The notes under the pieces are model-generated. The model did not search any database. It saw nothing but the letters and a program-made list of their open reading frames with translations, and was not told the origin of the DNA. 63,146 nucleotides of DNA. It comes from Chiloscyllium plagiosum (taxonomy: Eukaryota). The stretch covers positions 11,715,880 to 11,779,025 of the forward strand of contig NC_057749.1 of the NCBI RefSeq assembly GCF_004010195.1, read 5' to 3'. Below, in pieces: positions 25,097-63,146 of this stretch (positions are counted from its first letter, which is position 1; each line of letters begins with the position of its first letter). The position numbers and the translations under genes were made by a program.

Positions 25097-25805
25097 TTGG
25101 CTCAATCAGTGACATCCTCCACACGAGACAGAATCAGTTCCAGCCCCAATCCAGAAAATAGGAGTGAAAAACCAGACTAACACTTCATTGCAGCACTGAG
25201 GAGGTGCGACACTGTTGAAGGATCAGTACTGAGGAAGCACTCCACAGACAGAGTCAGTTGTGAGGGAGAACTGCACCATTGAAGGTGCAGCAGTGAGGAA
25301 GCAATGCACTAATGGAGGGGCAGTAGTGAGGGTGGATTGCACTATTGGGAGGTGCAGTAGTGAGAAAGTATTGCTAATTTGAAGGGACAGTAATAAGAGA
25401 TGTGAACTATTAGAGGGCAATAATAAGGGAGTGCCATTATATTGGAAGGACAGAAGTGAGGCAGAAGAATACTGTTGGAGGGGCAGTCGTGAGGGAGTAG
25501 TGTCAAATGCCTTTCCAATGAAACATTAAATTGGGGTTCTATTTGCTCTCCCAGGGAAATCTAATAGTTCTCATGTCATTATATGAAGGAGACGAATACA
25601 TTTTTCCTCATGTCTCAGACCAGTATTTATCCCTAAAATAACTCCTTAAAACACTTTACTTTTCACACTGCTCTTTGTGGGATCTTGTTGTATTCAGATT
25701 TCTGGCTGGCTTTATCTTACTTCCTGGACTACATTTCAAAATGCTTTACTGACTGTTTTGGGACATCCTGAGGTCCTGAAAGGCATTACGGAAATACAAA
25801 GCTTT
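25097..25805 (+). mobile_element. SacSINE1/DeuSINE-like SINE with internally expanded ~33-bp array (25190-25500)
   Basis: Deu-type motifs TATTTATCCCT, TGCTCTTTGTGGGATCTTG, TTTGGGACATCCTGAGGTCCTGAAAGGC. Confidence 0.7.
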
Positions 25806-26126
25806 TCCTCTGGTTAATTAAGCCTTGGTTCAAAGGTATTTTTGTGCTTCAGGTTTCTATAGTCACTGCCTGTCACTAGGAGCTGGAGTCCTGCAGCCCA
25901 GCTCTGCCCAATCATTTTACTGACAAACTACAATCTGGAATCAGCAGTGAGGATTGTGGCTGCTTCAAACTATCACTCAGAAATGACAAGCTGTGTGGTC
26001 AGGCATTCTCCTCTTGCTCTCCATTTCACCCTACCCAACATACACTCACTACACACACAAAGACACACACATATGCATACATCAGTTTGCTGGGCTAGGG
26101 TCTGCATCTCCCACACATACTGTTAC

Positions 26127-26213
26127 CTGTGAATCCGCATTCAGAACTTTAATCCTCTGTGTGGAAATGAAGAGATCGACTTCTGTCATTGGCTGTGAAT
26201 CTCCATCAGAACC
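26127..26213 (-). CDS. APBA2: APBA2 coding exon 6 ([29 protein letters not shown])
   Basis: 87 nt, cag/gtaaca. Confidence 0.96.
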
Positions 26214-26461
26214 CTGGGAGGAAGAAATTGACAGGGTCATTGATAAAGCCCATTTGGAAATCCAGGTCAGTACACTGGCTGACAGTGTTGCAGTACTGGT
26301 TAAACGTTACTGCTGGATTTCATATTGTGTCCACTGAAATATCATGTCACCCATCATCACACTGCAGGGCTCCCTGTCCAAATAAATTAATACACGTGGA
26401 TCAAATAATCAAAGACACAAGATTGCTGTTACAGGGGCAAGCCTGCAAGCGAACTACTCAC

Positions 26462-26497
26462 CCCTTTCTTCTTGATCTTTGATGTTTTCTGTACCCT
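26462..26497 (-). CDS. APBA2: APBA2 coding exon 5, 36-nt alternative microexon (RVQKTSKIKKKG)
   Basis: cactcag acceptor, gtgagt donor, phase 0-0; corresponds to recalled human RMQKAAKIKKKA insert. Confidence 0.9.
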
Positions 26498-26882
26498 CTG
26501 AGTGGCAACAAAGTATGAAAAGAAAATGAAGTTAGATACTGGAGATGACAGAAGAGATACTGGCACACAATACATCTCTGGTCACTTAAACTCATTAGGG
26601 CTGGGGTGGGAGGAGGGACAGAGATAGGAGGAGGAAAGGGGGATGCAATTCCGGAGTCCTAAGTACAGACCACCCCACAACCTCATACATAGATGAATTG
26701 CTGCACCCACACACAAGGGTATGGCTGTATCCACTGAAGTTTAGGAAAATGAAGTGTGACTGGATTAAAATATCTCCAGGGATCCTGGAGCTGGATGAAA
26801 TTTGAATCATTCGGGAGGCTGAGATGGTTACTGAGAGGAGTTACAGGGAGGTAATCACACCTCAGGTACAAGATGGGTTACA

Positions 26883-27025
26883 AATTAGAGTGGTGCTGGA
26901 AAAGCACAACAGGTCAGGCAGCATCCGAGGAGCCGGAAAATCAACGTTTCGGGCAGGAGCCCTTCCTGATGCACCACTCTAATCTTGACTCTAATCTCCA
27001 GCATCTGCAGTCCTCATTTCCATCT
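26883..27025. mobile_element. Short inverted PLE pLTR derivative with 12-bp TSD
   Basis: Perfect TSD AGATGGGTTACA (26871-26882 / 27026-27037); ATTAGAGTGGTGC versus GCACCACTCTAAT. Confidence 0.8.
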
Positions 27026-27790
27026 AGATGGGTTACAGTCAGAGGACTGAAAGGGAACCGTCAGGCTGTGCAAGGAACCCCTGTGGCCGTTCCCCTCAAC
27101 AAGTATACCAATTTGGATGCTGTTGGGGGGAACAACTTACCAGGGGTAAGCCATGGGGCACAGGTCTCTGGCAGAGAGCCTGTTTCTGTTGCTCAGAAGA
27201 GAAAGGGGAGAGGAGCAGAGCATTAGTCATTGGGGACTCCATAGTTAGGGAGACAGATACGAGGTTCTGTAGGAACGAGAGAGACTCATGGTTGCCAGGG
27301 CTTGTCTTGTCTCAGATCATGGTTTTGGGAGCTTAAGGGGGGAGGGGGAGCAGACCGAAGTTGTGGTCCACATAGGCACCAACAACATAGGTAGGAAAAG
27401 GGATGGGGATTTAAGGCAGAAATTCAAGGAGCCTGGGTGGAAGCTTAGAGCTAGAACAAATAGAGTTGTTATCTCAGTTTTGTTACCTATGCCACTTGCT
27501 AGCGAAGTAAGGAATAGAGAGAGAGAGGAGTTGGACACGTGGCTACAGGGAAGGTGCAGGGGACAGAGATTCAGATACCTGGATATTCTGAGCTAGGTGG
27601 GCCCTCTACAAACAGGATGGTCTACACCTGAACCAGAGAGGTACCAATACCCTGGGGGAAGTGTGTGGAAATTTGCTAATGTTCTTCGGGAGGGTTTAAA
27701 CTAATTCAGCAAGGAGGTGGGAAGCTAAATTGTAGCTCCAGTGCCCAGGAGGTTGAGAGTAGTGAGGTTTCAAGGTTGCATATGTGCATT

Positions 27791-27883
27791 CCTGAAGAAG
27801 GGCTTATGCCCAAAACGTCGATTCTCCTGTTCCCTGGATGCTGCCTGACCTGCTGCGCTTTTCCAGCAACACATTTCCAGCTC
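27791..27883 (+). mobile_element. 93-bp PLE pLTR insert starting at the hammerhead core, 14-bp TSD
   Basis: TSD TGCATATGTGCATT (27777-27790) / TGCATAAGTGCATT (27884-27897); matches 22049-22141. Confidence 0.8.
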
Positions 27884-30614
27884 TGCATAAGTGCATTGGC
27901 AAGCAGGAAGGTGGTTTGAAGTCTGCCTACTTCAACGCCAGGAGCATCCGGAATAAGGTGGGTCAACTTGCAGCATAGGTTGGTACCTGAGATTTCGATG
28001 TTGTAGCCATTTTGGAGACATGGATAGAGCAGAGACAGGAATGGTTGTTGCAGGTTCCAGGGTTTAGATGTTTTAATAAGAACAGGGAAAGTGGTAAAAG
28101 AGGGGGAGGTGTAGCCTTATTAGTCAAGGAATGTATTACGGTAGCAGAAAGGATGTTTGAGGACTCATCTACTGTAGTATGGACCAAGGTTAGAAACAGG
28201 AAAGGAGAGGTCACCCTGTTGGGAGTTTTCTATAGGCCTCCGAATAGTTCCAGCGATGTCAAGGAAAGGATTGCAAAGATGATTCTGGATAGGAGCGAGA
28301 GTAACAGCATAGTTGTTTTGCGTTACTTTAACTTTCCAAATATTGACTGGAAATACTATAGTTTAAGTACTTTAGATGGGTCAGTTTTTGTCCATATGTG
28401 TAGGAGGGTTTCCTAACACAGTATGTAGAGAGGCCAACAAGGGGCGAAGCCACATTGGATTTGGTACTGGATAATGATCCCAGCCAGGTGTTAGATTTGG
28501 AGGTAGGTGAGCACTTTGGTGGTGGTGATGTTTACTTTAGAGTATATACCGCAGGGCAAGAGTTATAGCTGGGGAAAAGGCAATTATGATGTGATTAGGC
28601 AAGATTTAGGATGCTTATGATGAGGAAAGAAAGTGCAGGGGATGGGCACAATTGAAACGTGGAACTTATTCAAGGAACAGCTACTGCGTGTCCTTGATAA
28701 ATGTGTTCCTGTCAGGCAGGGAGTAAGTGGTCGAGCGAGGGAGCCGTGGTTTACTAAAAAAGTCGTATCTATTGTCAAGAGGAAGAAGGTGGCCTATGTA
28801 AGGATGAAACGTAAAAGCTCAGTTCAGGCACTTGAGAGTTACAAGTAGCCAGGAAAGACCTAAAGAGAGAACTAAGAGCCAGGAAGCGACATGAGAAGTC
28901 ATTGGCAGGTAGGATCATGGAAAATCTTAAAGCTTTTTATAGGTATATCAGGAATAAAAGAATGACTAGAGTAAGATTAAGGCCAATCAAGGATAGTAAT
29001 GGGAAGTTGTGCGTGGAGTCCGAGGAGATAGGAGAAGCGCTAAATGAATATTTTTCATTGGTATTCACACAGGAAAACGTCAACGCTGTCGAGGAAAATA
29101 CTGAGATACAGGCTACTAGACGGGATGGGATTGAGGTTCACAAGGAGGACGTTTCAGCAATTCTGGAAAGTGTGAAAATAGCTAAGTCCCCTGGGCCAGA
29201 TGCAATTTATCCTAGGATTCTCTGGGAAGCCAGAGAGGAGATTGCAGAGCCTTTGGCTTTGATCTTTATGTCGTCATTGTCAACAGGAATAGTGCCAGAA
29301 TACTGGAGGGTAGCAAATGTTGTTCCCTTGTTCAAGAAGGGGAGTAGAGACAACTCTGGTAATTATGGACCAGTGAGTCTTACTTCGGTTGTGGGTAAAG
29401 TGTTGGGAAGGGTTACGAGAGGTCAGATTTATAATCATCTAGAAAGGTATAAGAGTTGATTAGGGACAGTCAACACGGTTTTGGGAAGGGTAGGTCATGC
29501 CTCACAAATCTTATTGAGTTCTTTGAGAAGGTGACCAAACAGGTGGATGAGGTTATAGCAGTTGATCTGCTGTATATGGATTTAGTAAGGCACTTGATAA
29601 GGTTCCCCACGGTAGGCTATTGCAGAAAATACAGAGATGGGATTGAGGGTGATTTGACGATTTGGATCAAAACTTGGCCAGCTGACAGAGGATGGTGGTG
29701 ATGGGAAATGTTCATCCTGGAGTTCAGTTACTAGTGGTGTACCTCAAGGATCTGATTTGGGCCCACTGCTGTTTGTCATTTTTATAAATGACCTGGATGA
29801 GGGCATAGAAGAATGGGTTAGTAAATTTGCAGATGACATTAAAGTTGGTGGAGTTATGGATAGTGCCGAAGGATTTTGCAGGTTACGGAGGGACATAGAT
29901 AAGGTGCAGAGCTATGCTGAGAGGTGGCAAATGGAGTTTAATGCAGAAAGCTGTGAATTGATTTACTTTGAAATACAGAGTACCTGGGCTAATGGTAAGA
30001 TTCTTGGTAATGTAGATCAGCAGAGAGATCTCGGTGTCCATATACATAGATCCCTGAAAGTTGCCACCCAGGTCGATACGGTTGTTAAGAAGGCATACGG
30101 TGTTAGCTTTTATTGGTAGAGGGATTGAGTTTCGGAGCTTTGAGGTCATGTTGCAGCTGTAAAAAACTCTGGTGTGGCTGCTCTTGGAGTATTGCATACT
30201 GTTCTGGTTGCCACATTATAGGAAGGATGTGGAAGCTTTGGAAAGGGTTCAGAGGAGATTTACTAGGATGTTGCCTGGTATGGAGGGAAGGTCTTATGAG
30301 TAAAGGTGAAGGGACTTGAGGCTGTTTTCACGAGAGAGAAGAAGGTTGAGAGGTGATTTAATTAAGACATATAAGATAATTAGAGGACTAGGTAGGGTGG
30401 ACAGTGAGAGCCTTTTCCCTCAGATAGTGATGACTAGCATGAGGGACATAGGTTTAAATTGAGGGGTGATAGATATGGGACAGATGTCAAAGGTAGTTTC
30501 TTCACTCAGAGTAGTAGGCGCATGGAACACCCTGCCTGCAACAGTAGTAGATTCACCAACTTTAAGGGCATTTAAATGGTCATTGGATAAACATATGGAT
30601 GAAAATAGAATAGT

Positions 30615-30830
30615 AGGAGAAAGTGAGGACTGCAGATGCTGGAGATCAGAGTCGAGAGTGTGTTGCTGGGAAAACACAGCAGGTCAGGCAGCATTTGAAG
30701 AGCAGGAGAATCGAGGTTTTGGGCATAAGCCCTTCACCAGGCATGATTCCTGAATGCCCAAAACTTCAATTCTCTGCTCCTCAGATGCTACCTGATCTCC
30801 TGTGCTTTCGCAGCAACACACACTGAAACT
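30615..30830. mobile_element. Inverted PLE pLTR derivative inside CR1 3' end
   Basis: TGTGTTGCTGGGAAAACACAGC versus TGTGCTTTCGCAGCAACACA arms. Confidence 0.75.
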
Positions 30831-31449
30831 GGAATAGTGTAGGTCAGATTGGTTTCACAGGTCAGTGCAACATCGAGGGCCAAAGGGGATATACTGCACT
30901 CTAATGTTCTTTGTTTCCTCTTGTGCAAGAATCTAGAAATCTGGGTCACCCATTTAAAATACAGATAAGGAGAATTTTATTTCCCACAGAGCATCATGAC
31001 TCTTTGGAACTCTCTTCCTGAAAAGTAGTAGTAGAGTCTTTGAACATCTTTAAGGCAGGTTAAGGTGGGAGGTGGTGGTGGTGGAGGGGGGGGGGGTTGG
31101 TGAGGTCGTTGGAGTTGTCAGGAGTAATCAGATGAGCTACAGTCTTATTGAATGGGAGAGCAGGCTCCAGGGGCGGAATAGTCTATTCTCTTATTCCTAT
31201 ATTTGTATATTTGTATATATTATATATATATTATATACATATATATAGCCATTACTCAACAACAGAGGGTAGACTTAATGCCCTCTGTCAGTGAGGCTGA
31301 ACAAGAATTAGTTATGGGTTCTTGTGCAGTTCCTTTGTTATTTTAAGATATATCAGTTTGTTTGTAAAATAATATTCACACAGGTCCAGAGCTGGTCTTA
31401 TCTCATATGGTCTGAGGGTGACTGAGGCCAAATGGAATAAGGCACCAGG

Positions 31450-33497
31450 TGATAGAGTAATACAGCATGGAAACAGGCCCTTCAGCCCAAACTGGTCCAT
31501 GCTGACCATGGTGCCCACTCAGCTAGTTCCAATTACCCGCATTTATACAGTCATAGAGATGAACAGCACAGAAACAGACCCTTCGGTGCATGCCAAACAG
31601 GTATCCTAACCTAATCAAGTCCCATTTGCCAGCACTTGGCCCATATCCGACTAAACCCTTCCTATTCATATAACCATCCAGATGCCTCTTAAATGCTGCA
31701 ACTGTACCAGCCTCCACCACTTCCTCTGACAGCTCATTCCATACATGTATCATCCTCTGCATGAAGAAGTTGCCCCTTACATCTCTTTTATATCTTTCCC
31801 CTCTCACCCTAAACCTATGGCGTCTAGTTCTGGACTCCCCCACCCCAGGAAAAAGACTTTGTCTATTTATCCTATCCATGCCACTCATGATTTTATAAAC
31901 CTCTATAAGGTCACCCCTCAGCCTCCGATGCTCCAGGGAAAACAGCCCCAGCCTATTCAGCCTCTCCCTGTAGCTCAAATCCTCCAAACTGGCAATATCC
32001 TAGTAAATCTTTTCTGAATACTTTCAAGTTTTGCAATATCCTTCCGATAGGAAGGAACCCAGAATTGCACACAGTATCCCAAAAGTGGCCGAAGCAACTT
32101 TGGTCCAAACCCTCTAAACCTTTCCCATCCATGTACCTATCCAAATTGTTTTTAAATGTTGCTATTGTATCTTCCTCAACCACTTTCTCTGCAAGCCCAT
32201 TGCATATTTGTACCACTCTCTGCGTGAAGATGTTTCCCGTCAGGTCCTTCTTAAATCTTTCCTCTCTCACTTTAAACCTATGCCCTCTAATTTTCAATTC
32301 CCCATACCTGGGAAAAAGATTATATGCATTTACCCTACCTATGCTCCGCATGATTTTATACACTCAATAAGGTCACCCCTCATTCTCCTACATTCCAAGG
32401 AATAAAGTCCTATCCTGGCCAACCTCTCCCTACAACTCAGGCCTACTTGTCCTGGCAACATCCTCATAAATCTTCTTTGCTCTTTTTCCAGTTTAACTAT
32501 GTCTTTCCTATAATAGAGTGACCAAAACTGTACACAATACTCCAAGTGCGGCCTCACCAACGACTTACACAACTGTAACATAACGTCCCAATTCATATAC
32601 CCAATGCCTTGATTGATTAAAGCCAGCATGCTAAATGTATTCTTCACCACCCTGTCTACCTATGACGCCATTTTCCTAGGCCCCTGTGTTCCATAATACT
32701 CTTCAGGACCTTACCATTTACTGCATAAACTACCTTGGTTTGACTTTCCAAAGTGCAAAACCTCACATTTATCTGTATTGAATTGCATTTGCCAAACCTC
32801 AGCCCATTTACCCATCTGATCAAGATCCCTCTGTAATGTTTGATAACCTTCCTTGCAATCAACAATACCTCCTAATTTTCTATCATTTGCAAACTTACTA
32901 ATCATGCCTTGTGCATTCACACTCACATTATTTATGTAAATAACAAATAACAAAGGTCCCAGCACCAACCCTTGTGACACACCACTAGTCACAGGCCTCC
33001 AGTCTGAGAAAGAACCTTCAAACATCACACTCTGCATCCCACCATCTAGCCAATTTTAAATCCAGTTAGCTAGTTCTCCTTAGATCCCACGCAACCTAAT
33101 CTTCATAACTAGCCTGCTGTGTGGGACCTTATCAAAGGCCTTCCTAAAGTATATATAGACGACATCCACTGTCCTACCCTCATCTATTCTCTTGGTTACC
33201 TCTTTGAAACACTCTAAAAGATTTGACAGATATGACTTCTCGCGCACAAATCCATACTAACTATCCCTAATCAGACTTGGACTATCCAAAGGTTTTAGAT
33301 TAGATTAGATTCCCTACAGTATGGAAACAGGCCCTTCGGCCAAACAAGTCCACACTGACCCTCCAGAGATGTTGGTTGACCCTACCCCTCAGCATCCTCT
33401 CCAACAACTTGTTTAGCACTAACAGCAGGCTCGCTGGCATGTGGTTCCCAGGCTTGTCTTTACTACTTTTCTGAAACAATGGAACAACATTAGCCAT
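31450..33497 (-). mobile_element. Stacked CR1 3'/RT fragments (at least two elements)
   Basis: Two separate RT C-termini (LFSLEHRRLRGDLIEVYK; LYSLECRRMRGDLIE) and ISKFAND. Confidence 0.88.
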
Positions 33498-34008
33498 TAG
33501 GTGTAGTCTAGGTAGCTGTGGGAGTCGGTTGGTTTATAGTAAATGTCCGAGTTGATTCGGTCGCCCGTGATAGAAATGGAGAGGTCTAGAAAGGGGAGGG
33601 AGGAGTCTGAGACGGTCCGAGCGCCTCATCTTCCGCCTAGGAACCCTCCAACCACAAGGGATGAACTCAGACTTCTCCAGTTTCCGCATTTCCCGTCCCC
33701 CCACCTTGTCTCAGTCCCAACTCTCGAACTCAGCACCACCATCCTAACCTGCAATCTTCTTCCTGACCTCTCCGTCCCCACCCCCACTCCGGCCTATCAC
33801 CCTCACCTTATCACCCTCACCTTAACCTCCTTCCACCTATCGCATTTCCAACGCCCCTCCCCCAAGTCCCTCCTCCCTACCTTTTATCTTAGCCTGCTTG
33901 GCACACTTTCCTCATTCCTGAAGAAGGGCTCATGCCCGAAACGTTGATTCTACTGCTCCTTGGATGCTGCCTGACCTGCTGCGCTTTTCCAGCAACACAT
34001 TTTCAGCT
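33498..34008. mobile_element. Neptune-type PLE fragment with 5' inversion; hammerhead 33918-33945
   Basis: 33498-33618 is the reverse complement of ~21122-21240; 33619-34008 matches 21766-22140. Confidence 0.85.
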
Positions 34009-35069
34009 TAAACCTAAGAGAGTTTGGACCTAAAGTGTTCTCCAACTGACACTTCAGTCACTTGCCCGACTTCATTTCTAAACTGTTGCACCCGCCCAAG
34101 TAGGGTTCTCTACATATTGGTTTAGGAAACGTTCTTGGACAAATCGGACCAATTCCACCCGGTTGGGCCTTTTAAACTCTGGGTGGTCCAGTCAATTCCG
34201 GGGAAAATTAAAAACCAATACTACACTATTATTCTACTGGTAACTGCAATCTCTCTACACATCTGCTCCTCTAGTACCAAATGGCTATTAGTCCCAACAA
34301 AGTGACCATCCCCTTCTTGTTTCTAGTTCTAACCATATAGCCTCATTTGAATACCCTTTAAGAATATCCTCTCGAAGCACTATTGTTATGTCCTCCCTTA
34401 TCTAAAGGCCAACTGCCCCATCTCACTTACTTGTCCCTCTGTCGCGCCTGTAGCTTTTGTATCCTGGCAACATCCAAGGAGCAGCGAAATCGACATTTCG
34501 GGCAAAAGCCCTTCGTCAGGAATAAAAACCTAGTTTTTACCTCATTTTTACCTCATCTGCCTTACCAATCAGGCCTCGTGTGTTGAAATAAATGCACTTT
34601 AAACCTTATCACTCCCTTCACTGTGGATATATTAATGAAGGGCTAATTGGGTGTAAATTATGGGTCTCTCTTGTAGTGTAAAAGTAGTGTACCTACCGCA
34701 GGTTCAAGTCCACCGGTTCCAGAGGTATGTAATAACATCTCTGAATGGGATGGTTAGAAAAACAGGTTAAATTAAGAAAAAGGATGTGAATTGGTTGTAT
34801 AAGTAGGTGGAGCTAGTAATCAGCTGCTTTTGTGGCACAGTGGTAGTGGCCCTATATCTGGGCCAGAAGGGCTGATGTCAAGTTCTACCTGCACCAGAGA
34901 TGTGTCATTATGTTCAGGTTGATTAAAATATCTAAAAGTTGGACTTGAATTTTTGTGTAAACAGAGTTACTTTTTTTGGAGTATAACAAAAGCTACACCT
35001 ACAGAATGCCAGAGTTTGAACTGTAGATAGTTGAGATGAAGATGAAACAAGCAGAGTTAAGCAAGATAC

Positions 35070-35215
35070 CTTGATGCGTCCCACAGCCTCCTGGGCTTGC
35101 ATCATGCGGATGTTTTTGGAGGGGTTCCGCTCAGATAGCAGCTGTGTGGAGCCTAGGTAATTGGCTGCAAAAATGATCCCATCAATCAGATCCTCAGGCT
35201 CACAGGGTCCTGGAA
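35070..35215 (-). CDS. APBA2: APBA2 coding exon 4 ([23 protein letters not shown]...EAVGRIK)
   Basis: 146 nt, phase 1-0, start of PTB domain. Confidence 0.97.
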
Positions 35216-35997
35216 CTTCAGAAATAGCACAGAATCAGAGCTCATGAAGTAGTCAAATGATTTTAAGGGATATGGGGATAATGCAGGAATATCTCATTAA
35301 GGTGGATGATCGAGAATGGGGGAGCAGGCTTAATGGACTCATGTTTTTAAGCCCCTCCCCTCAGTAACAAGTACAGCAAGTGCTTCAATCTCAAGGAGAC
35401 ACCTCATCAAATGAAAATATTAAACCTTATCAAAAATGCAAGAAAGGTTTCAGTGGTAATTGCAGCATCGGCCATGGGTGTGAAACAGGTTGGGCTATTG
35501 GTGCTGAGCTATTCTGTATAAGCCACAGCCTCTGATATATCAAAGATTTATTTATTTTACCTTCTACATCTCTCATTTTACTCACAGGCAGCTCAAGACA
35601 ACAGAGGATTTGATAAAATAATCGGCACAAAAATAGTACATTCAAGCTTATGTCAGTGTTTATGCCCTACCCTAGCCCCTTTGCTCATCTAAATCTGCCG
35701 TCTTTAACTACTTAACCATTTCTCCCTCTGGGGATGTGATCTTGGTGATACAAATGGGAGTGGATTAGAATAACACCAAATTAAGCAAAATTTGGAACAT
35801 CTTATCACACACCAGAGGCAGATCCATTAATTATTCAGACCATGTGCTGATGGTCTACTCTATACTACAGACAATGAAGAATATTTCCAGAACTGTTTCT
35901 ACTGCACCGAATGACCCTTTACAACAAGGGGCTCCATTCCAGCCTGCCTCTGCTTGTCTAAATCATTTCCATCTGCAAATACTTGACAAGCACTCAC

Positions 35998-36037
35998 CAT
36001 CCACAAAGTTGGGAAAAGCCGATGGCTTCCTTGTTTG
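35998..36037 (-). CDS. APBA2: APBA2 coding exon 3 (QTRKPSAFPNFVD)
   Basis: 40 nt, tttctcttttag/gtgagt, phase 0-1; resembles human TKKVASFPSFVA. Confidence 0.9.
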
Positions 36038-36649
36038 CTAAAAGAGAAACCAGATATTAGCATAGTGCCACACTAACTAAATATTAACCAATGATATCTC
36101 AAGGTGCATCACGCTCTGAGTGAACACGCGCAACATAATCTGAAATTGAATTCATTCCCTGTAATAAGGTGACCAAGAGAACACATCCAGTCAACTCACC
36201 ATTGAGTTACTTACACAGATGGATCATCAGATAGACAATGGTCAAATAAACAGTCAACAAAGACATACACCAACTCTCTCACTTGAGTATGGACACTGCA
36301 TGTTTGAAGCCTCACTAAAATTGCCAATCTTCATATCTGACTGAAAATGGTAAGTGTCAGAAGGACATTAAAAATCAGACAACCATTCCAGTCATGCCTG
36401 ACAGCTTTGCATATTTCAGAGGAGTCACTGGAAATCAGTTAGGTACATTCCTGCCTCATTTTTGCCTCCCTTATTCTGTGACTGAAACAACTGCAACAGC
36501 CTGAAGGCCAGCCCTCTCCCTACATCTTTCAGCTGACTCTGTTTATGCTGCAGGACTTGAGCTGGGATCTTCACAGAATGCTACAATAAATGGTTCATAA
36601 ATGGTCATTGATTAAAGAATGAAAATCACAGAAAAGCAGTAAAACTGAC

Positions 36650-36730
36650 CTCAGAGAGATAGTTATTATTGACCGGGCCATTGAGGTCAGAGCGTTGCTG
36701 TTTCCGCGGCTGCTCTGTGTCAGAAGTAGC
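36650..36730 (-). CDS. APBA2: APBA2 coding exon 2 (ATSDTEQPRKQQRSDLNGPVNNNYLSE)
   Basis: 81 nt, cag/gtcagt; EQPRKQQRSDLNGPV is characteristic of APBA2. Confidence 0.95.
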
Positions 36731-36983
36731 CTGTCACCAAACAGAGAAATAACACGGAGTTACACCTAATTTTCCATACATTTCCTTTTATCTAGCGTAC
36801 CCATCACCCATCAATCTGTGTGCCCACATTTTAAGCAATCTCTATCCATAGCCTTAGATTGATTTGTCTTTTATCCAATCATTTGTCTCTTTCTCTGTCT
36901 CTATTTTTTGTCTGATCATCCATCCATCTACCTTTCCAGCTATTTGTCATCCAAATGACAATATAGTTACTTATCTATATATT

Positions 36984-37325
36984 TAGATACAGAGTAAAGC
37001 TCCTTCTATGTCCCCATCAAGCACTCCCAGTACTAGGAAAGCACACTGGTTAGATACAGATTAAAACTCCCTCTACTGTTTTAAACTAAAAGTAAACTCC
37101 CTTTACTCTTTTAAACAAAACGTAAAGCACTCTCTGCTTTTTAAACTGAAAGTAAAATTCCTTCTACACTGTTCCCATCAAACATTCCCACGATGAGTAC
37201 AGCATGGGGTTAGATACAGAGTAAAACTTCTTTTAATCTCTTAAACAGAAAGTAAAGTTCTCTCTACGCTGTTCCCAGGCCAGGTACATCACAGGGTTAG
37301 ATGTAGAGTAAAGCTCTCTTTACAA
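36984..37325 (+). repeat. Composite minisatellite cluster 3
   Basis: Same units as 5365-5850. Confidence 0.85.
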
Positions 37326-37779
37326 TTTTACATCTATGTTGCTCCCCTGCTAACGTGAGAAATATGCCTGAACTAAGTCAGCAGTTCCTATGACCTGCTT
37401 TGTTCAGTGTTGTTGTTTGTAACAACCTTGTGGTGAAATCAAAACCTCTAAGTCAGATCTAAGCCTCTCCTCTTAGTTTTGGGTAAGAACTGCTAAAATA
37501 TAGGTTAGAGATGGGACATCAATGAGAGTGCTGAGACCAGAAAGGGATGCATTTCTATTAGCTTTTGTAGGAAATTAATTGCAATGAACTATCTTGTTCA
37601 ATTGTGTCCAACAGGAGTTTTGAGATAGCTTGGGAGCATCACCTAACATGAAGGAGAACACTGCCTACTACAATCACAGGAGAGCGTAGTAATTGAAACA
37701 GCAGCAACAGACCAAGAATTTCAGCTGTCAACTGGATGACAGTACATGCAACAGATTGTCCTTTAGTGTCAGCTATACT

Positions 37780-38250
37780 GGAACGTTCCAGAGGAGGTTC
37801 ACGAGAATGATCTGAGGAATGAAAGACTTAACATATGAGAAATGTTTGAGGACTCTGGGATTATACTCGATGGAGTTTACTAGGATGAGGGGGGATCTGA
37901 TTGAAACTTACAGAATACTGAACAGGTTGGACAGAGTGGAAGACATTTCCATTGGCAGGAGAGACAAGGACCCAAGGGCACAGTTTAAGAGTAAAGGGAT
38001 GGCCCTTTAGAATGGAAACAATGAAAAATTTCTTTACGCAGAGACTGTGAATCTGTGGAGTTAATTGCTGTAAAAGCTGTGGAGGCCATGTCATTGAGTA
38101 TATTTAAAACAGATATAGTTAAGTTCTTGATTGCCAAAGGGGATCAAAGGCAGAAAGCAGGAAAATGGGGTCGAAAAATCTATCAGCCATGATTGAATGG
38201 TGGAGCAGACTCGATAGGCCTAATTTCTGCTCCTATGTCTTTTATCTTAT
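37780..38250 (+). mobile_element. CR1 3' end fragment
   Basis: LGLYSMEFTRMRGDLIETYRIL. Confidence 0.8.
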
Positions 38251-38982
38251 AAAGACCGGAGGGAGTTTTACACTGCCTCCCTTTAAATAGCTGACACTGA
38301 AGGTCAACCCTGTTGCACGTGTTGCCCTTCTAAATGTTAACGAGGATGGATGCATATTTTAGAAGTTATGTTCCAAAGTATATAAATGCTTATGAGATGT
38401 TTTAACATCTGCTTTTATTTCAATAAACTACAAATTTCACCAAATGGGGAAACTGTCTATTCTCCCTGAAATCTATTCCTAACCCTTTTATATCTAAAAT
38501 AAATCATTACAAACAGATGTGAACGTACTTCAGTAAATTTAAATACATCCCAAGTATTATCCTGGAACTCTCAGGGGCGTTTATCAGTGTGTTTTGCCCT
38601 TCAGTTAACTATTTGTAGTGCAGTGTCCTGTCCTCTAAACTCCATCACAGATACTGAATAGCTACCTCTCTATCTCTCATCACTGCCATGACAACAATGC
38701 CTGTTCCTGTTCCTGATGCCTATTCAGTGTTCCCTGCAACGCGGGGAGAGATGAGTGAAATGCAGCATTTCATCCCTCTTCAATCGAATAGCTGGCCAAC
38801 AGCATCTCACTTCATAATGAACTAATGGTTATTTGGGAGTGGTACTAGACATTGAAGGTCAAGGGGCAGCTGCTTGGGAATTCCAGAATAAATCAGAAGC
38901 TATGGAAGATGAATGGGTAGAACAAGGAAGGGAAGAATGGATTTTTAGCCTTTGAGAAAGTTTTGATTGTGGGAATGTGTAC

Positions 38983-39855
38983 CTGCTCAGGATTCCATTG
39001 CTGGTGTTCCTCAGGGGCTGTCAGCTCAGGCTTTTCCTCACTACTTTTCTCATTGCTGGGTGATGCCTGGCAGAGTCTTGGCCGAGTCTCCCGTCCACTA
39101 TGGCAGCTGGTCAGGTTTCTGTCCAAATTCCCCTTCACAGTCACCTCCAAACTCTGCTCTCCAACACTGTTCAAGCTGCTCATACTCATACTCATTTTGA
39201 TTTCAGCTACGATTTGATCAATATCTTCCTCCACATCCTCTGTGTCCACTTCCAATTTGCTGCTGTGGTGCTGCAATGTCTGAGGACACTGGGCAATGTG
39301 CTCAGAGTGAGAATATTCACGTGAGGTTCCTTCATTGCTGCCACTTCCTTCACTGTTCCTTTCTGCCTGGGCAACCGTACAATCCAATTCCTCAAGGTGA
39401 CTAGCCCTGTCACAACCAGAGTGTTTAGATTCTTCAGTCATAGCTTGACAGAGTCTGTTAGATTGTGCCCAGGACTCTTCTGTGGCTTCCTGGCAATCAT
39501 CAGTCTCTGCTGCAGTAATAGTTTGAGTTCCATAGCCCCCTCCAGTGCACCCCAGGTCTTCCAGATAACTGTCTTCTTCAGGACAGTATCTGATATAATA
39601 AGTCACCCCTTCCTCCTCCTCCTCAGGCAGGCCTTCATCATAATCCTCCTCTTCCTCAGACGTATTATTTATATAGTCAGAGCTTGAATCACCATCCCCT
39701 GGGTTGTCATGGAGATCGATATCCAAAGGAACAGGATGAGCTTCCTTACCATTCTCCTGCCAATCTTCAGATGTTTGATGCTTGGGTTCTGTTTGGCAGT
39801 GAGAGGGAGTGGAACAAGGATGCAATGAAGGCTCCTCCAACTTGTCTGCCATCAT
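38983..39855 (-). CDS. APBA2: APBA2 first coding exon (291 codons, acidic N-terminus/Munc18-binding region); exon extends to acceptor at 39944
   Basis: DGDSSSDYINNTSEEEEDYDEGLPEE..TYYIRYCPEEDSYLE and EEDIDQIVAEIKMSMSM; donor CAG|gtacac; ATG at 39855. Confidence 0.93.
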
Positions 39856-40204
39856 CACCAGCTCCAGCCGGTTACAGTCACCAGCCCTTCAGCCGGTTAC
39901 AGTCACCAGCCCTTCACATTCCAGTCCTGGCTCAGAGACTTAATCTGCAGCAAGAGAAAACCATCAGTGAAAAAGAATAACAAAAATCCTTTAATTCAGT
40001 AAACATGCAATAAATAGGGATCCACATGGAAGAGAAACATTAGCAATGCTTAGAATGCAGGCCTGTTTGAGCCCTTTAGAAAGAAAACAATGGTCATTAT
40101 CAGGACTTCCACTGTTGACATTCATTGTCACTAGTCAATAGCCTTCATCAGCAACCATCTCAATACATTTTTGTTCATTAATAATGCTAACTCCCTTGTG
40201 TACT

Positions 40205-45321: not shown

Positions 45322-45765
45322 GACTCAGTGGTTAGTACTCTTCACATTTGAGTCAGAAGCTTGTGGGTTCAAGTCCCACTTTAGGACTTGATCAGAAAAA
45401 AATAAAGCTGACACTCTGGTGCAGTGCTGAAGGGATATTACATTATCACAGGTGCCACCTTTCAGATAAGATGTTTAACTGAGGCATATCTACCTTCTCA
45501 GATAGATATAAAAAGGTCTCACAGAGAAAAAGCAGGGAGTTCTCCTTTGAGTCCTAGCCAATATTTATCCCTCAATCAATATCATAAAACAGATTATTTG
45601 ACTTTCATACTGTCATTTGTGAGAGATAGCTGTATGAAAGCAGACTGCTGATTTGCCTATATTACAACAGTGGCAACACTTTAGATTAGATTAGATTAGA
45701 TTAGATTACTTTAAAAATACTTCATTGCCTGTAAAGTGCTTTGGATGTCCTTTGGCTGTGAAAAT
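45322..45765 (+). mobile_element. SacSINE1/DeuSINE-like SINE, full length
   Basis: tRNA head (GGGTTCAAGTCCC), Deu-type GCCAATATTTATCCCTCAATCAA..CAGATTAT, tail ATTACAACAGTG..TACTTCATTGCCTGTAAAGTGCTTTGG. Confidence 0.8.
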
Positions 45766-46453
45766 TTCTGTGCTGCAATCCTTGATAAAAAAAGGTCTTA
45801 GCCGATAAAAGCTGCAGATCTGGGATAGGTCTCCATTAGACCATAAGACACAGGACTAGGATTAGGCCATTTGGCCACTGAGTCTGTTCCACCACTCAAT
45901 CATGTCTCTGCGCAGTGCAGTCTAACTCCATTTCTGTCTCTTCCTCCTATTTAGTCAGATGCCCTCTTGGTGATATACCTTGGGTGCTCCTGCCTTTGAA
46001 TCGAAAAAGATGCCCCATTCTTTGAGAGGGGAACATTGGTCTTGGAAATGTGGTTGCCACGTTTTTGGAAGACGGAAGTTAAGGAATGGGAGGGTCAAAA
46101 GCAAAGGCCAATTTCATTGTGAACAAACTTCAGGAGGTAAACATCATCCTGTTATTAATCCTGATTAAATACATTTCCTCTTTAACAGGCTCCACTCAGC
46201 CTTGCATGGAGATACAGTATTATCACAAAATGGAACAGAATTTTAAGCTTTATCCAGATTACTGGTTATAACTACCAGAGACATTTAGAGATGTGCAGAC
46301 ACCAGGCTGTGACAGCAATTATACCAGATTGGAAAAACAGTGAGTCAGAAAATTGCGAAACTGAATTTGGAGAGGCTAATCTTGCCACCATTCTGGATCA
46401 GTGGTGCTGGAAGAGCACAGCAATTCAGGCAGCATCCGAGGACAGGCAAAATC

Positions 46454-46481
46454 GACGTTTCGGGCAAAAGCCCTTCATCAG
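46454..46481 (-). ncRNA. Minimal hammerhead ribozyme core (sense to APBA2 direction)
   Basis: CTGATGA-A-GGGC-TTTT-GCCC-GAAAC-GTC. Confidence 0.75.
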
Positions 46482-46732
46482 GAATAAAGGCAGAGAGCCT
46501 GAAGCGTGGAGAGATAAGCTAGAGGAGGGTGGGAGAGAAGAGGAAAACTTCTTCAGGGCGGGAGTCCTGATTGTGAAAGTAAGCTTGGAGGCGGAGGCGA
46601 CGGAAGAATTGTTCGATGTCACGGCGTGTATATCTCCTTCCCCACTGACCTATTGTACTCTATGCTACTCTCTCCCCACCCCCCCCCTCCTCTAGCTTAT
46701 CTCTCCACGCTTCAGGCTCTCTGCCTTTATTC

Positions 46733-46760
46733 CTGATGAAGGGCTTTTGCCCGAAACGTC
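46733..46760 (+). ncRNA. Minimal hammerhead ribozyme core
   Basis: CTGATGA-A-GGGC-TTTT-GCCC-GAAAC-GTC. Confidence 0.75.
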
Positions 46761-47169
46761 GATTTTGCCTGTCCTCGGATGCTGCCTGAATTGCTGTGCT
46801 CTTCCAGCACCACTGATCCAGAATCTGGTTTCCAGCATCTGCAGTCATTGTTTTTACCTCGTTAATCTTGCCACCAGCTTCATCTCTCTTAGGTTTCCAA
46901 TTTCTGCTCCAAGCTTCTTTGCCATTTTCTTAATGCTATTGTCTTCAGCAATCCTCTGAACTGTTTTCTTAATGATCCCTATTATTCTGCTTTAAATGGT
47001 GAGCTTCTCAACATCTCCACATTTCTCTTGTATGTACAAGCTACTGGTAGTAAACACAGGCATGGCGTTATCTTTCACTATGCCCGAGTCAGTTTTTTTG
47101 CATCTACTTTTTAATCTTAGTGTTGTTCTATACGCGAAGCGCTAACCCTTCAACTGGGTGATTCATTAA

Positions 47170-48555
47170 TAGAACACAGAACAGTACAGCACAGTACAGG
47201 CCCTTCGGTACTTTATATTGTACCGATCTTTTATCCTACTCTAAGATCAAACTAACCTACATACCCTTCATTTTACTGTCATCCATGTGCCTATCCAAGA
47301 GTCGCTTAAATGTTCCTAATGTATCTGACTGTACACAGAGTGATGGGTGTGTGGAATGCACTACCAGAGGTTGTAGTAAAGAACCAATGTCTGACATCAT
47401 CCCTAAACCTTCCTCCAATCACCTTAAAATTATGCCCCCTTGTGATAGCCATTTCTGCCCTGGGAAAAAGTCTCTGACTCTTCACTCTCCTGTCAACTTC
47501 TTGTACACCTCTATCAAGTCACCTTGCATCCTTCTTCATTCCAATGAGAAAAGCCTTAGCTCCCTCAAACTTTCTTCATCAGACGTGCGCTCCAGTTCAG
47601 GCAGCATCCTGGTAAATCTCCTCTGCACCCTCTCTAAAGCTTCCATATCCTGTGGTGACTAGAACTGAACACAATATTCCAAGTGTGGTCTAACCAGGGC
47701 TCATTAGAGCTGCAGAATAAACTTGTAGCACTTAAACTCAATCCCCCTGCTCATGAAAGCCAACACACCATACGCCTTCTTAACAATCCTATCAAGAGAG
47801 ATCTATGAACATGGACCCCAGGATCCCTCTGTTCCTCCACATTGCCAAGAATCCTGCCTTTAACCCTGTATTCTGCATTCAAATTTGACCTTCTAAAATG
47901 AATCACTTCACGCTTTTCCAGGTTGATCTCCACCTGCCACTTATCAACCCAGTTCTCCATCCTGTCAATATCCCATCGCAACTTACAACAGCCCTCTCCA
48001 CACTATTCACAACTCCATCAACCTTCATGTCATCAGCAAACTCACTAGCCCACTCTTCCACTTCCTCATCCAAGTCATTTATAAAAATCACAAATAGCAG
48101 AGATCCCAGAACAGATCCCTGCGGAACACCACTGGTCACCGAGCTCCAGGCTGAAAACTGTCCATCTCTTCCCACCCTATGTTTTCTGGGGCCAGCCAAT
48201 TTTGAATCTGGACAGCCAAATTATCCTGTATCCCATGCCTCCTTAATTTCTGAATGAGCCTACCATGTGGAACCTTCTCAAACGCTTTGATAAAATCCAT
48301 GTACACTACATCCACTGCTCTACCTTCATGAATGTGTTTTGTCACATCCTCAAAGAATTCAATAAGGCTTGTGAGACATGACCTGCTCCTCACAAAGCCG
48401 TGCTGACTATCTCTAATCAAACGACGGTTTTCCAAGTAGTCATAAATCTTGTCTCTCAGAATCTTTTCCAATAATTTTCCCACCACACACATAAAGCTGA
48501 CTTGTTTGTAATTCCCAGGATTACCCCTATTCCCTTTCTTGAATAAAGGAATAAC
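47170..48555 (-). mobile_element. CR1 LINE RT and 3' end
   Basis: PGNYKQVSF, DSQHGFVRSRSCLT, GVPQGSVLG, EFADD. Confidence 0.9.
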
Positions 48556-48809
48556 ATAATAATGACAAAGAAATAAAAATAAACCAGCTAATCTCTCAAG
48601 CCTGTTCCACCATTTAATTAGATAATGGCTGAGAGCTACCTTCACCCTTTTGACAAGTACTGATTTCAAAACCAATAAAAATCTGTCTGTTTTGAAAGCT
48701 CCAACTGAAGCTCAGCTTGAGAGGCTACGGATCTGAAACCTTAACTCTATTTCTCTCTCCACAGAGATCAGTACTACATTTCCAACATTTCCAGATTCAA
48801 AATATTAAC

Positions 48810-53369: not shown

Positions 53370-54494
53370 CAGGAATGAGGCAAGTGGCCCAAGGGGGCTA
53401 AGAGATGTATGGGAGGGGGTGGGGCTGGGGGGAGCAAGATAGCTGGGAATGCAATGGGTAGTTGAAGGTGGGGGTGAAGATGATAGGTCGGAGAGGAGGG
53501 TGAAGCAGATATGTGGGCATATAGTACAGTTCAAGAGGACGGTGCTGAGTTGGAATGTTCAATCTGGAATAAGGTTGGGGGGGGGGGGGAAATGAGGAAA
53601 CTGGTGAAATCCTCATTGATCCCGTGTGGCTGGAGGGTCCCAAGGTGGAAAATGAAGCATTCTTGCTCCAGGCATTGGTGGTTAGGGTTTGCTGTGGAGG
53701 AGGCCCAGGACTTGTCCTTGATGGAGTGGGTAGAAGTGCAATCCTTCCCTGCCACCGTCAGAAGTGTAAAAATCTACACCCACACCACCCCCCTTGCCCC
53801 CCTCCATGGCCCCAAAGGATCCTTCCACGTCCAACACATGTACTTCCACACACATCATCTACTATGTCCGTTGCTCTCAATGTGGTCTCCTCTACATTGG
53901 GGAGACAGGACGCCAACTCGCAGAACTTCAGAGAACATCTCTGGGACACACGCACCAAACAACCCCACCACCTCATGGCCAAACACTTTAACTCCCATCC
54001 CACTCCGCCAAGAATGTGCAAGTCTTGGGCCTTCTCCACCGCCAAACCCTAAACACCCAACACCTGGAGGAAGAACACCTCATCTTCCACCTTGGGACCC
54101 TCCAAACACACCGGATCAGCATGGATTTCACAAGTTTCCGCCTTTCCCCTCCCCTCACCTTAACCCAGATCCAACCTTCCAACTCGGCACTGCCCTCTTG
54201 AACTGCCCTACCTGTCCATCTTCCTTCCCACCTATCTACTCTACCCTCCTCTCCAACCCATCACCTTCACCTGCACCTTCATCTACCCATTCCCAGATAC
54301 CTTCCCCCATCCCAGCCACACCCCCCTCCCATTTATCTTTCAGCCCCCTTGGGCCACAAGCCTCATTCCTGATGAAGGGCCTACACTTGAAACATCGATT
54401 CTCCTGCTCCTCGGATGCTGCCTGACCGGCTGTGCTTTTCCAGCATGACACTCTTCAACTTTTGATCTCCAGCATCTGCAGTCCTCACTTTCTC
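53370..54494. mobile_element. Neptune-type PLE with GIY-YIG remnant and inverted 5' copy, ~15-bp TSD
   Basis: HIIYYVRCSQCGLLYIGETGR; 53370-53730 is an inverted copy of ~53990-54373; TSD CTGCTTTCCCTCTAT / CTGCATTCTCTCTAT. Confidence 0.85.
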
Positions 54495-54869
54495 CTGCAT
54501 TCTCTCTATGACAAGTATATCCTCTTTTAGGCAGCAAGATCAAAACTGCACACAATACACCAGTTGTGATCGCAGCAAGATCTTGTATAACTGCAGTACT
54601 TCTGAACTCAAATTCTCTTGCAATGAAAACCAACATACCATTTGCCTTACTCATTGCTTAACATACCTGCCTGTCTAGTTTCATTAGAGACAAAAAAACT
54701 GCGGATGCTGGAATCCAAGGTAGACAAGCAGGAAGCTGAAAGAACACAGCAAGCCAGGCAGCATCAGAAGGTGGAGAATTTGACGTTTCAGCTGTAACTC
54801 TTCTTCAGGACTATCTATTTCCATTGACTGGTTTACAAAAACACCCAGACCTCTTTAAATAAAATAAGG

Positions 54870-60240: not shown

Positions 60241-61870
60241 TTAGCAAGTTTTGAGAAGATATGTGGCTCAGGTTGAGGTTCTGGATGTAGGTTTGCTCGC
60301 TGAGCTGGAAGGTTCATTTTCAGACGTTTCATCACCATACTAGGTAAGATCTTCAGTGAGCCTCCGGATGAAGCATTGCCGATGATTCCTGCTTTCTATT
60401 TATATGTTTGGGTTTCTTTAGGTTGGTGATGTCATTTCCTGCGTGGATGTCATTTCCTATGGTGATGTCATTTCCAATTCTTTTTCTCAGGAGGTAGTAA
60501 ATGGGGTCCAAGTCAACGTGTCTGTTGATAGAGTTCCAATTGGAATGTCATGCTTTTAGGAATTCTCATGCATGTCTTTGTTTGGCTTGTCCTAGGATGG
60601 ATGTGTTGTCCAGCCGAAGTTGTGTCCCTCCTTATCTGTATGTAAGGATACTAGTGAAAGAGAGTCATGTCGTTTTGTGGCTAGTTGATGTTCATGTATC
60701 CTGGTGGCTAGTTTTCTGCCTGTTTGTCCAATGTAGTGTTTGCTACAGTCCTTGCATGGTATTTTGTAAATGACATTAGTTTTGTTTGTTGTCTGTATAG
60801 GATCTTTCAAGTTCATTCGCTGCTGTTTTAGTGTGTTGGTGGGTTTGTGGGCTAGCATGATGTCAAGGGGTCTGAGTAGTCTGGCAGTCATTTCCAAGAT
60901 GTCTTTGATGTAGGGGAGAATGGCTAGGGTTTCTGGATGTGTTTTGTCTGCTTATTTGGGTTTGTTTCTGAGAAATCCGCCGACTTGTGTTCATTGGGTA
61001 CCCATTCTTTTTGAATACACTGTACAGATGATTTTCCTCTGCTCTGTGTACTTCCTCTGTGCTGCAGTGCGTGGTGGCTTGTTGAAGTAAAGTTCTGATG
61101 CAGTATCATTTGTGGATGTTGGTATGATGGCTTCTGTAGTTCAATATTTGGTCTGTATGTGTTGTTTTCCTGAGTATGCTGGTTTGAAGTTCCCCATTGG
61201 CTGTTCGGTCTACTGTGACATCTAGGAATGGCAGTTTGTTGTTGTTTTCTTCCTCTTTAGTGAATTTTATGCCAGTAAGGCTATTATTGATGGTCTTGAA
61301 GGTTTCCTCTAATTTGTTTCATTTAGTGATGACAAAGGTGTCATCCATGTAGCGGATCCAGAGTTTGGGTTGGATGGTTGGCAAGGCAGTTTGTTCAAGT
61401 CTCTGCATTATTGTCTCTGCTAAGAACCCTGGTATCAGAGATCCCACGGGTGTTCTGTTGGTTTGACTGTAGGTTTTGTTGTTGAAGGTGTAGTGGGTGG
61501 TAAGGCATAAGTCCACAAGCTTGACGATACTGTCCTTGCTGATGAAGTTGGTGGTGATTGATGTATGTGTCTTTGGGTCTTCTAATAGTGTAGTCAGTGT
61601 TTACTTGGCCTGATTGATGTGAGTAGGGCTATACATCAAAGGAAACCATTATTTCATCCTCTTCTATCTTAGTGTCTTTGATGGTCTTCAGGAATTCTTG
61701 AGTGGAGTGGATGGAATGGCTTGAGTCTTGTACTAAGTGTTTTATTCTTTGGTGTAGCTCATGGCCAATCTGTAAGTTGATGTTCCAGGTGACGAGACTA
61801 TGAGTCTGAGGGGGACTCCTGGTTTGTGAATTTTGGGTAATCCATAGAAGCGTGGTGTGTTGGATCCGTC
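60241..61870 (-). mobile_element. Penelope-like element (Poseidon-type), RT + GIY-YIG + pLTR, degenerate; hammerhead 60323-60356
   Basis: EIMVSFDV, WIRYMDDTFVI, VIYKIPCKDCSKHYIGQTGRKLATRIHEH. Confidence 0.92.
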
Positions 61871-62189: not shown

Positions 62190-63146
62190 AATTAAAATAT
62201 CATCACCATCACTAAAGTAGTAGTATTAGACAAAATGGCGAAAGTGAGGACTGCAGATGCTGGAGATCAGAGTCTAGATTAGAGTGATGCTGGAAAAGCA
62301 CAGCAGGTCATGCAGCATCCAAGGAGCAGGAAAATCAGTATTAGACAAAATAATGGGTCTACAGGCAGATAAATCCCTGGGCCTGGTCATGTGGCTTGCA
62401 TCCTAGGATCCTAAAAGAGATAGCTAGAGAGATAGTGGAGGCATTGGTTGTAATTCTCCAAAATTCCTTTGATTCTGGAGAAGTACCAGAGGATTGAAAA
62501 ACTGCTCGTGTCACACCTCTATTAAAAAAAGGAGGGAGGCAAAAAGGAGTTAACTATATGCCGATTAGCCTAACATCTACTGTTGGAAAAGTATTGAAAT
62601 CAATATTTAAGAAAGTAACAGCAGAACAGTTAAAAAAATCTTTATTTCACCTATATGTGGAACTGCAGGAGGTGGGGAAGATACTAAATGAGTATTTTGC
62701 ACCAGCGTTTGCTGTGGAGAAGGATATAGAAGCTAGGGAACTTTAAGAAGGAAGTATGTGTCAGATATAGACAGGATAGATCGCATTAATCCTTAGAAGA
62801 GTAGAAAGGCAGTAGGAATATACTTAAGGGAGAAATCGGGAGGGCAAAAAGGGGACATGAGATAGCTTTTGCAAATGGGATTAAGGAGAATCCAAAGGGT
62901 TTTTACAAATACATTAAGGACAAAGAGTAACTAGGGAGAGAATAGGGCCCCTCAAAGATCAGCAAGGCAGCCTTTGTGTGGAGCCGCAGGAGATGGGGAA
63001 TATACTAAACAAGTATTTTGCATCAGTATTTACTGTGGAAAATGACATGGAAGATATAGATTGTAGGGAAATAGATGGTGACATCTTGAAAAATGTCCAA
63101 ATTACAGAGGAGGAAGTGCTGGATGTCTTTAAACGCATAAAAGTGG
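62190..63146 (+). mobile_element. CR1 ORF2 fragments (several, rearranged)
   Basis: PISLTSTVGKVL, ILNEYFA, KENPKGFYKYIK segments. Confidence 0.8.
62237..62336 (-). mobile_element. 100-bp PLE pLTR tip with perfect 15-bp TSD
   Basis: TSD AGTATTAGACAAAAT (62222-62236 / 62337-62351). Confidence 0.8.

Follow-up and report, generated by a model that had tools for sequence, protein, structure and literature searches.

We find that a 472-bp insert in the genome of Chiloscyllium plagiosum, which carries a hammerhead ribozyme motif on each strand and was taken in the original prediction for a young palindromic mini-element, is best read as the outcome of a single, recent integration of a Penelope-like element (PLE), in which two copies of a PLE tail lie head to head, and not as an element in its own right; we put the probability of this reading at roughly 85%. 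The insert occupies positions 46391-46862 of the stretch of DNA analysed here (63,146 nucleotides of contig NC_057749.1, hereafter the window, to which all coordinates refer unless a locus is named). The copy is dead on arrival, having no means of replicating as a palindrome, and both the fold-back arrangement and the presence of minimal hammerheads on opposite strands are already known from PLEs.

The features on which the original prediction was built are all present. A perfect 14-bp target duplication, TAATCTTGCCACCA, flanks the insert (46377-46390 and 46863-46876), the left copy corresponding to a single site without the insert in a related species and the right copy being its sequence repeat. 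No open reading frame (ORF) lies between them, and an inverted repeat of 153 nt with 97% identity (46390-46542 / 46672-46824) includes a perfect core of 139 nt (46391-46529 / 46685-46823). The motif CTGATGA-A-GGGC-TTTT-GCCC-GAAAC-GTC is found on the + strand at 46733-46760, and its reverse complement at 46454-46481 gives the same reading on the - strand. The insert retains 18 CpG dinucleotides, and its observed/expected ratio of 0.57 exceeds those of the 2-kb flanks (0.17 and 0.26).

The two ends of the insert are asymmetric, the left arm touching the duplication and the right arm being separated from it by 39 bases. The left, inverted arm (46391-46555, - strand) comprises 165 nt of a 5'-truncated PLE 3' end of a type that we call 'B', without the 39-nt tail, and its outer end coincides with the proximal of two reverse-transcription start sites discussed below. 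The right, direct copy (+ strand) is of a second type, 'A', and has three parts: 76 nt that are antisense to N-terminal codons of the PLE ORF (46556-46631), a sense stretch of PLE 3' untranslated region (UTR) and pseudo-long terminal repeat (pLTR) at 46632-46823 (family positions 77-268, with 46685-46823 forming the right repeat arm), and the 39-nt tail extension (46824-46862), which stands at the right end only. Both arms hold the pLTR segment, and consequently each strand carries a minimal hammerhead motif. The 14-bp duplication is the only direct repeat, the two motifs being inverted and not direct; it encloses both arms, which meet with zero spare bases and no second duplication at the join. 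Given one duplication, no spare bases and arm ends that fall at start sites of a known type, a single integration event is the simplest explanation.

The Penelope-like origin that had been proposed for the insert is borne out by related copies. In one locus (L016) the tail, from family position 77, directly follows an ORF that ends in a CCHH-like Cys/His-rich stretch and a GIY-YIG region, for which the Pfam match (E = 4.1e-4, 21.0 bits) falls just under the cut-off of 22.6. A 98-aa peptide from the visible edge of another locus (L058) found 37 database proteins, the best of which, from a bamboo shark, are 93-95% identical and bear RVT_1; three of the 37, more distant, carry RVT_1 and GIY-YIG together. 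As read from the visible parts, most related loci reading N upstream of the tail, the family has an ORF with reverse transcriptase and C-terminal GIY-YIG upstream of the repeated tail, its copies share a 3' end and differ in length, and the copy in the window is without the ORF. We also considered a PLE ORF that starts at ATG 46779 and runs through the tail, and rejected it, its 28 codons giving no convincing match in the related 654-aa protein.

Searches of the source genome (3.56 Gb in 101,977 contigs) distinguish the origins of the two arms. With the 472-nt insert as query (40 loci scored of 2794 candidates), 39 other loci match element positions 166-472 (46556-46862) at 99-100%, positions 1-472 are matched in full by the window only, and the match of the left arm to those 39 loci is confined to the reverse complement of positions 291-434. 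The right 307 nt is, judging from these matches, a 5'-truncated copy of the tail of a very abundant and very young PLE, the A type. A query that spans the junction of the arms (46515-46600; 40 scored of 1158 candidates) is likewise matched in full by the window only, the 39 other scored loci matching its A part. Read in element sense, the innermost 62 nt of the left arm match over their full length at 94-100% in 27 of 35 candidates (all scored, the 27 including the window), and the left 165 nt is by the same measure a tail copy, in inverted orientation, of a less common PLE variant, the B type, without the 39-bp tail. In other B loci the tail is preceded by a sense body with reverse transcriptase and endonuclease (RT/EN). 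Three loci (L045, L050 and L054) are simple 5'-truncated sense B copies with target duplications of their own, and have sense PLE ORF sequence between the 5' duplication and the tail, with a recognisable reverse transcriptase in L045 and L050; in a fourth (L012) a B-like inverted arm lies beside an A copy, as it does in the window.

Over the 139 nt that they share the arms do not differ at all, but inward of that block they are unrelated. Neither the right copy nor the abundant A family contains the innermost 26 nt of the left arm (46530-46555), which are found in the B variant at 26 other loci; presumably, then, the two arms derive from different template RNAs. Our literature search listed no paper in which one PLE insertion is traced to two different templates, although such an absence is not proof. 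These 26 nt bear directly on whether the insert could have arisen by twin priming or snap-back on a single RNA, in the manner of LINE-1. In LINE-1 5' inversions, a second priming on the other DNA strand produces an inverted 5' segment inside one target duplication, the second primer annealing at random internal sites of the same RNA. The identity of the 139 nt shared between the arms is what one template would give, and inverted internal pieces of the body in 5 of 16 related insertions (see below) are what internal priming predicts. However, a single RNA does not account for the 26 nt, and the arm in the window has its outer end at the fixed proximal start site that is specific to the element, apparently on a different RNA, and not at a random internal site. 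We consequently regard twin priming as very improbable.

Related insertions repeat the fold-back layout. We examined 40 A-type loci, 29 of them from the 472-nt query and 11 new from the junction query (9 of these 11 with longer flanks). Target duplications of 11-17 nt accompany the true 3' end in 16 of the 40; when the position tested is moved 100, 200 and 300 nt downstream as a control, the counts fall to 0, 0 and 1 of 40, which excludes chance; the other 24 loci have 5' ends that lie beyond the sequence compared. Of the 16 resolved loci, 11 have a tail arm in inverted orientation directly beside the 5' duplication, and in 10 of these 11 (L007, L009, L011, L012, L014, L016, L017, L021, L029 and L055) the outer end of this arm lies at family position 268-273, without the 39-nt tail that the direct copies in the same ten loci carry. 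The exception is L005, where the outer end lies at family position 125. The inner ends of the arms all differ (102, 118, 124, 138, 145 and 147, or continuing through 77 into the 3' UTR and endonuclease region in antisense). The other 5 of the 16 have, beside the 5' duplication, a segment of the body in inverted orientation. An apparent pattern, in which N stretches end next to both arm starts, did not hold, given that they end elsewhere in the second set of loci.

That every junction is different marks these insertions as by-products of insertion and not as members of a replicating family, an outcome that the original prediction had itself named as fatal to its claim of a mini-element. A family of palindromic mini-elements, in which the 472-bp hairpin unit is itself copied, would account for the clean ends, the perfect target duplication and the perfect arms, and non-autonomous derivatives of PLE pLTRs do exist (preprint 10.64898/2026.07.22.740005, in its available text). 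Nevertheless, the junction of arm and spacer is present in 1 of the 40 loci scored of 1158 candidates, the window itself, the full 472 nt is matched among the scored loci by the window only, related two-armed insertions each have their own junction, and the arms are tails of two PLE variants. We find it scarcely credible that the hairpin is a replicating unit. A foldback or miniature inverted-repeat (MITE-like) DNA element was rejected on the same junction count, and on the asymmetry of its termini, of which just one bears a tail.

Old, decayed head-to-head pairs of the tail region, with 72-85% identity, are also present, in the window at 30675-30744 (-) / 30755-30806 (+) and elsewhere in L054 (125-200 / 205-274) and L046 (1867-1938 / 1941-1969), and the fold-back layout is, given these pairs, long-standing in this genome. 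One related insertion (L029, 657-1379) holds approximately 720 nt of unique sequence between the inverted arm and the body, inside its bounding duplication.

The insertion is recent, as had been supposed from its retained CpGs. It is 100% identical to many copies, and in a related species (sequencing run X9) a 755-nt contig joins 46387 to 46871, with 22 differences and approximately 3% divergence in the flanks, and thus presents an empty site; the insertion is therefore younger than the split between the two species. The empty site in X9 has one target copy with an extra CCA (GCCACCACCA vs GCCACCA), and the insertion site is a short CCA repeat.

The empty site is also relevant to the possibility that an inverted B copy and a direct A copy were inserted next to one another independently, at different times. 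Such a history would readily provide arms from different variants, PLEs frequently target copies of themselves, and PLE proteins are known to nick in or near their own pLTR (PMC11167929). However, one 14-bp duplication surrounds the composite, with neither a second duplication nor spare bases between the arms, the two-armed layout is enclosed within a single duplication in 11 of the 16 resolved loci, and the related species lacks both parts precisely. Two separate insertions are consequently unlikely.

Under the single-event reading that we favour, a staggered break made by the PLE endonuclease would have given rise to the 14-bp duplication. The bottom strand would then have primed a complementary DNA (cDNA) on an A RNA from the distal start site, producing the 307-nt direct copy with its 39-nt tail, and the top strand would have primed a second cDNA on a B RNA from the proximal start site, producing the 165-nt inverted copy without a tail; both cDNAs may have stopped early, their ends then meeting in the head-to-head join at 46555/46556. 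Whereas the anatomy of the insert is directly visible, we infer in which order and from which strand priming took place, that a single event drew on two RNAs, and that cleavage is lacking.

Several elements of this scheme have precedents. The available text of Craig et al. 2021 (PMC8557442) describes PLE insertions that are highly 5'-truncated, with a 5'-truncated copy standing inverted at the 5' end and a tail of 30-40 bp on one side. The insert shares with the canonical endonuclease-bearing (EN+) PLE unit, as that text presents it, the 5' truncation, the target duplication, the inverted 5' copy, a tail (of 39 bp) at one end and a hammerhead motif within the repeated tail segment that follows the reverse transcriptase/GIY-YIG ORF. 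It differs from that unit in being an extreme short form without the ORF, in having arms from two variants and in having an antisense-bodied source for its direct arm. Furthermore, Frangieh et al. 2024 (PMC11167929) found that the purified green anole Poseidon protein, PAc, cleaves and extends both DNA strands, that reverse transcription begins at two adjacent internal sites with the tail being the stretch between them, and that the hammerhead needs the protein for cleavage and is dispensable for insertion in vitro. Two start sites that bracket the tail fit one arm with a tail and one without. The PAc ORF starts inside the hammerhead, whereas the codons from 46779 to the end of the insert, as mentioned above, have no convincing protein match.

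The hammerhead motif agrees with the published core features of the minimal type I hammerheads of PLE terminal repeats, as the original prediction had proposed. Its core boxes are CTGATGA (46733-46739), GAAA (46753-46756) and GTC (46758-46760), with predicted cleavage after C46760; an extra A (A46740) precedes helix II, in which GGGC (46741-46744) pairs with GCCC (46749-46752). There is no loop 3 (GAA-ACGU-C), and positions 15.1-16.1 form a palindrome (ACGU) of the dimer type, such that a monomer cannot close helix III. Helix I (AUUC/GAUU) has 3 pairs around a U-U mismatch, in keeping with the weakness of Stem I that had been pointed out. Among 21 decayed copies from the window and related loci, 19-21 retain the core positions and 20 the extra A, position N7 varies freely (T in 13, A in 4, G in 3 and C in 1), and most other changes reflect CpG decay; in the most diverged copy helix II reads GGTC/GACC, altered on both sides.

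Minimal hammerheads in PLE pLTRs were reported by Cervera & de la Pena 2014 (PMC4209133), the available text of which describes opposite-strand pairs 100-700 bp apart, the lack of a real helix III and a dimer-type palindrome in its place, a helix I of 4-5 bp, and weak self-cleavage at GUC as dimers. The present motif has the same CUGAUGA, GAAA and GUC boxes, lacks loop 3 and has the palindromic ACGU. It differs from the hammerheads in that text in the length of helix II (4 bp here, 7-8 bp in schistosome families) and in its helix I of 3 pairs around U-U, and any activity in the present family is putative. The available text of the preprint cited above likewise describes animal non-LTR retrozymes that are short and non-coding, with a type I hammerhead and a relationship to PLE pLTRs, as here; retrozymes are direct tandem repeats that give circular RNAs, whereas the window has a single inverted pair and no tandem partner.

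It had been suggested that the insert would offer a hammerhead to a transcript from either strand. This is so as far as the letters go, but in the predicted fold of a + strand transcript the insert forms one hairpin (-351 kcal/mol) in which 28 of the 28 motif positions pair with the other arm (46733 with 46481, through to 46760 with 46454). For one arm alone, a fold constrained to the hammerhead has an energy of -5.7 kcal/mol, against a minimum free energy of -22.4 kcal/mol. On these predictions the hairpin would bury the ribozyme in any transcript that spans both arms, and self-cleavage is not expected from this locus; nor, in a thermodynamic prediction for two arm fragments folded together, is the double hammerhead the minimum. 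A lookup of sequencing runs listed no run recorded as RNA for this stretch.

A number of points weigh against our interpretation of the insert. The set of 29 loci was chosen with a two-armed query and may over-sample two-armed copies, and in the less biased set a target duplication was found in 3 of 11 loci, with a tail arm in 1 of those 3. Additionally, the bodies of related copies read N, such that the full structures and inner joins of most copies are not visible. With PAc in vitro, no difference between top and bottom strand in the choice of start site was seen, whereas 10 of 11 related arms and that in the window are tail-less. The scan with Rfam covariance models that had been proposed as a check returned no hammerhead, either among 11 matches in 45500-47800 or among 2 matches in 46700-46800 (E <= 10), with nothing reaching the gathering score in the whole window, and the motif is a predicted ribozyme. 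The hammerhead families of Rfam cover types I, II and III, HH9 and HH10, and we infer that their silence here is due to models built around a closed helix III, a feature absent from this motif. The same scan of 45500-47800 gave many matches to microRNA precursors, far below their gathering scores, which we discarded as a reflection of the long hairpin. Finally, the inner junction is backed by the assembly only, the contigs breaking in the repeat and none being shown to bridge it.

This last point raises the question of whether repeat copies were mis-joined during assembly, and complex PLE insertions often trouble shotgun assemblies, especially short-read ones (PMC8557442, in its available text). 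However, contigs of a run with the same species label (X2) begin in unique flank and extend into the insert, by 22 nt at the left arm and by 24 nt at the right end, entering the correct ends of the element and indicating a filled site, although overlaps of this length fall below the bridging threshold of 31 letters. The target duplication is moreover perfect, and the layout is typical of the family. We therefore consider an artefact to be barely conceivable. Contigs from run X6 stop at 46322 and resume at 47012, and those from run X7 stop at 46394, and neither covers the junctions usefully.

The abundant A family from which the right arm comes has an unusual structure of its own. The first 76 nt of its tail in the window (46556-46631), like the sequence that precedes them in other copies, run antisense to the N-terminal region of the PLE ORF: the L058 peptide corresponds to residues 117-214 of the 654-aa shark RVT_1 protein, at 95% identity. 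From family position 77 the copy continues as sense 3' UTR, hammerhead and tail, for 231 nt (46632-46862). The chimera is seen in the window and in loci L002-L030 and L055-L063. Its head-to-head junction at 46631/46632 shows no variation (100% identity in 40 of 40 loci scored, of 350 candidates), among copies of various lengths and with various target duplications, and loose ends of contigs at 46632 show an alternative, canonical upstream sequence. To judge from this fixed junction, the source family of the right arm is an amplified chimera with an antisense PLE body. Its presence in copies of differing length and target duplication suggests that an RNA with an antisense body and the 231-nt sense tail is mobilised in trans, and the family accordingly appears to be a non-autonomous derivative.

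Taken together with the two start sites, the insert may represent a natural record of two-template, two-strand integration by one PLE complex, from an A RNA with a distal start and another PLE RNA with a proximal start, a proposal that we advance tentatively and at somewhat less than even odds. If it is general, a 231-nt 3' module with a minimal hammerhead would suffice for mobilisation in trans, and the rule of one tail per insertion would reflect a strand-specific choice of start site in vivo, unlike that in the in vitro system. The surrounding copies thus offer in vivo data on the poorly understood insertion of PLEs, with arms of mixed template in one target duplication, an arm beside the 5' duplication that is consistently tail-less, and an antisense-bodied family that spreads via a 231-nt tail. 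For annotation, short hairpin inserts that bear hammerheads in shark-like genomes are to be viewed as tail debris of active PLEs, and not as a new class of ribozyme element.

With regard to its genomic context, the insert had been placed in a 5' intron of APBA2. Exons of an APBA2-like gene are indeed present on the - strand, at 23358-39888. A PDZ1 exon (within 23358-23936) and the end of the PTB domain (within 23926-24585) match rat/human APBA2 chains with E values of 1e-37 and 1e-32 respectively, further pieces of PTB are found within 24670-25014, 26085-26306 and 34935-35234, and a long N-terminal exon (within 38896-39888) matches the Munc18-binding stretch of APBA1 (E = 3.6e-4). The insert lies approximately 6.5 kb upstream of the N-terminal coding exon, and beyond it none of the 125 reading frames on the - strand of the window matches an APBA domain. 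The gene assignment of the original prediction consequently stands, whereas its intron is left without an exon on the far side within the window: a position in a 5' intron of APBA2 is plausible, and one in upstream intergenic DNA is possible. A recent, long and perfect hairpin approximately 6.5 kb upstream of the coding exons of APBA2 might conceivably influence how RNA is processed locally, and, as a side possibility, the 139-bp hairpin, if transcribed near APBA2, might feed small RNAs directed against the family.

The window also holds older remains of retroelements. Fragments matching RVT_1 in Pfam lie at 47906-48711 (-), 29658-30119 (+), 32714-33055 (-) and 1082-1531 (-). The N-terminal peptide from L058 has no match in the reverse transcriptase ORFs of the window at 48139-48711 and 1082-1531, which are probably retroelements of other kinds or too decayed. 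An old PLE body is apparent at 60595-60951 (-) and 61322-61600 (-), where a GIY-YIG-like piece (E = 5.6e-4, under the cut-off) lies beside an RVT_1 piece. Nine further decayed hammerhead regions are found at 18127-18173, 22032-22113, 26903-26965, 27788-27859, 33900-33985, 34461-34526, 54365-54436, 54745-54813 and 62297-62336, several of them inside introns of the APBA2-like gene. Lastly, downstream of the insert, 47125-47350 contains a highly repeated stretch that starts at approximately 47169, where summed contig depth jumps by four orders of magnitude in 4 of 4 runs and loose contig ends pile up.

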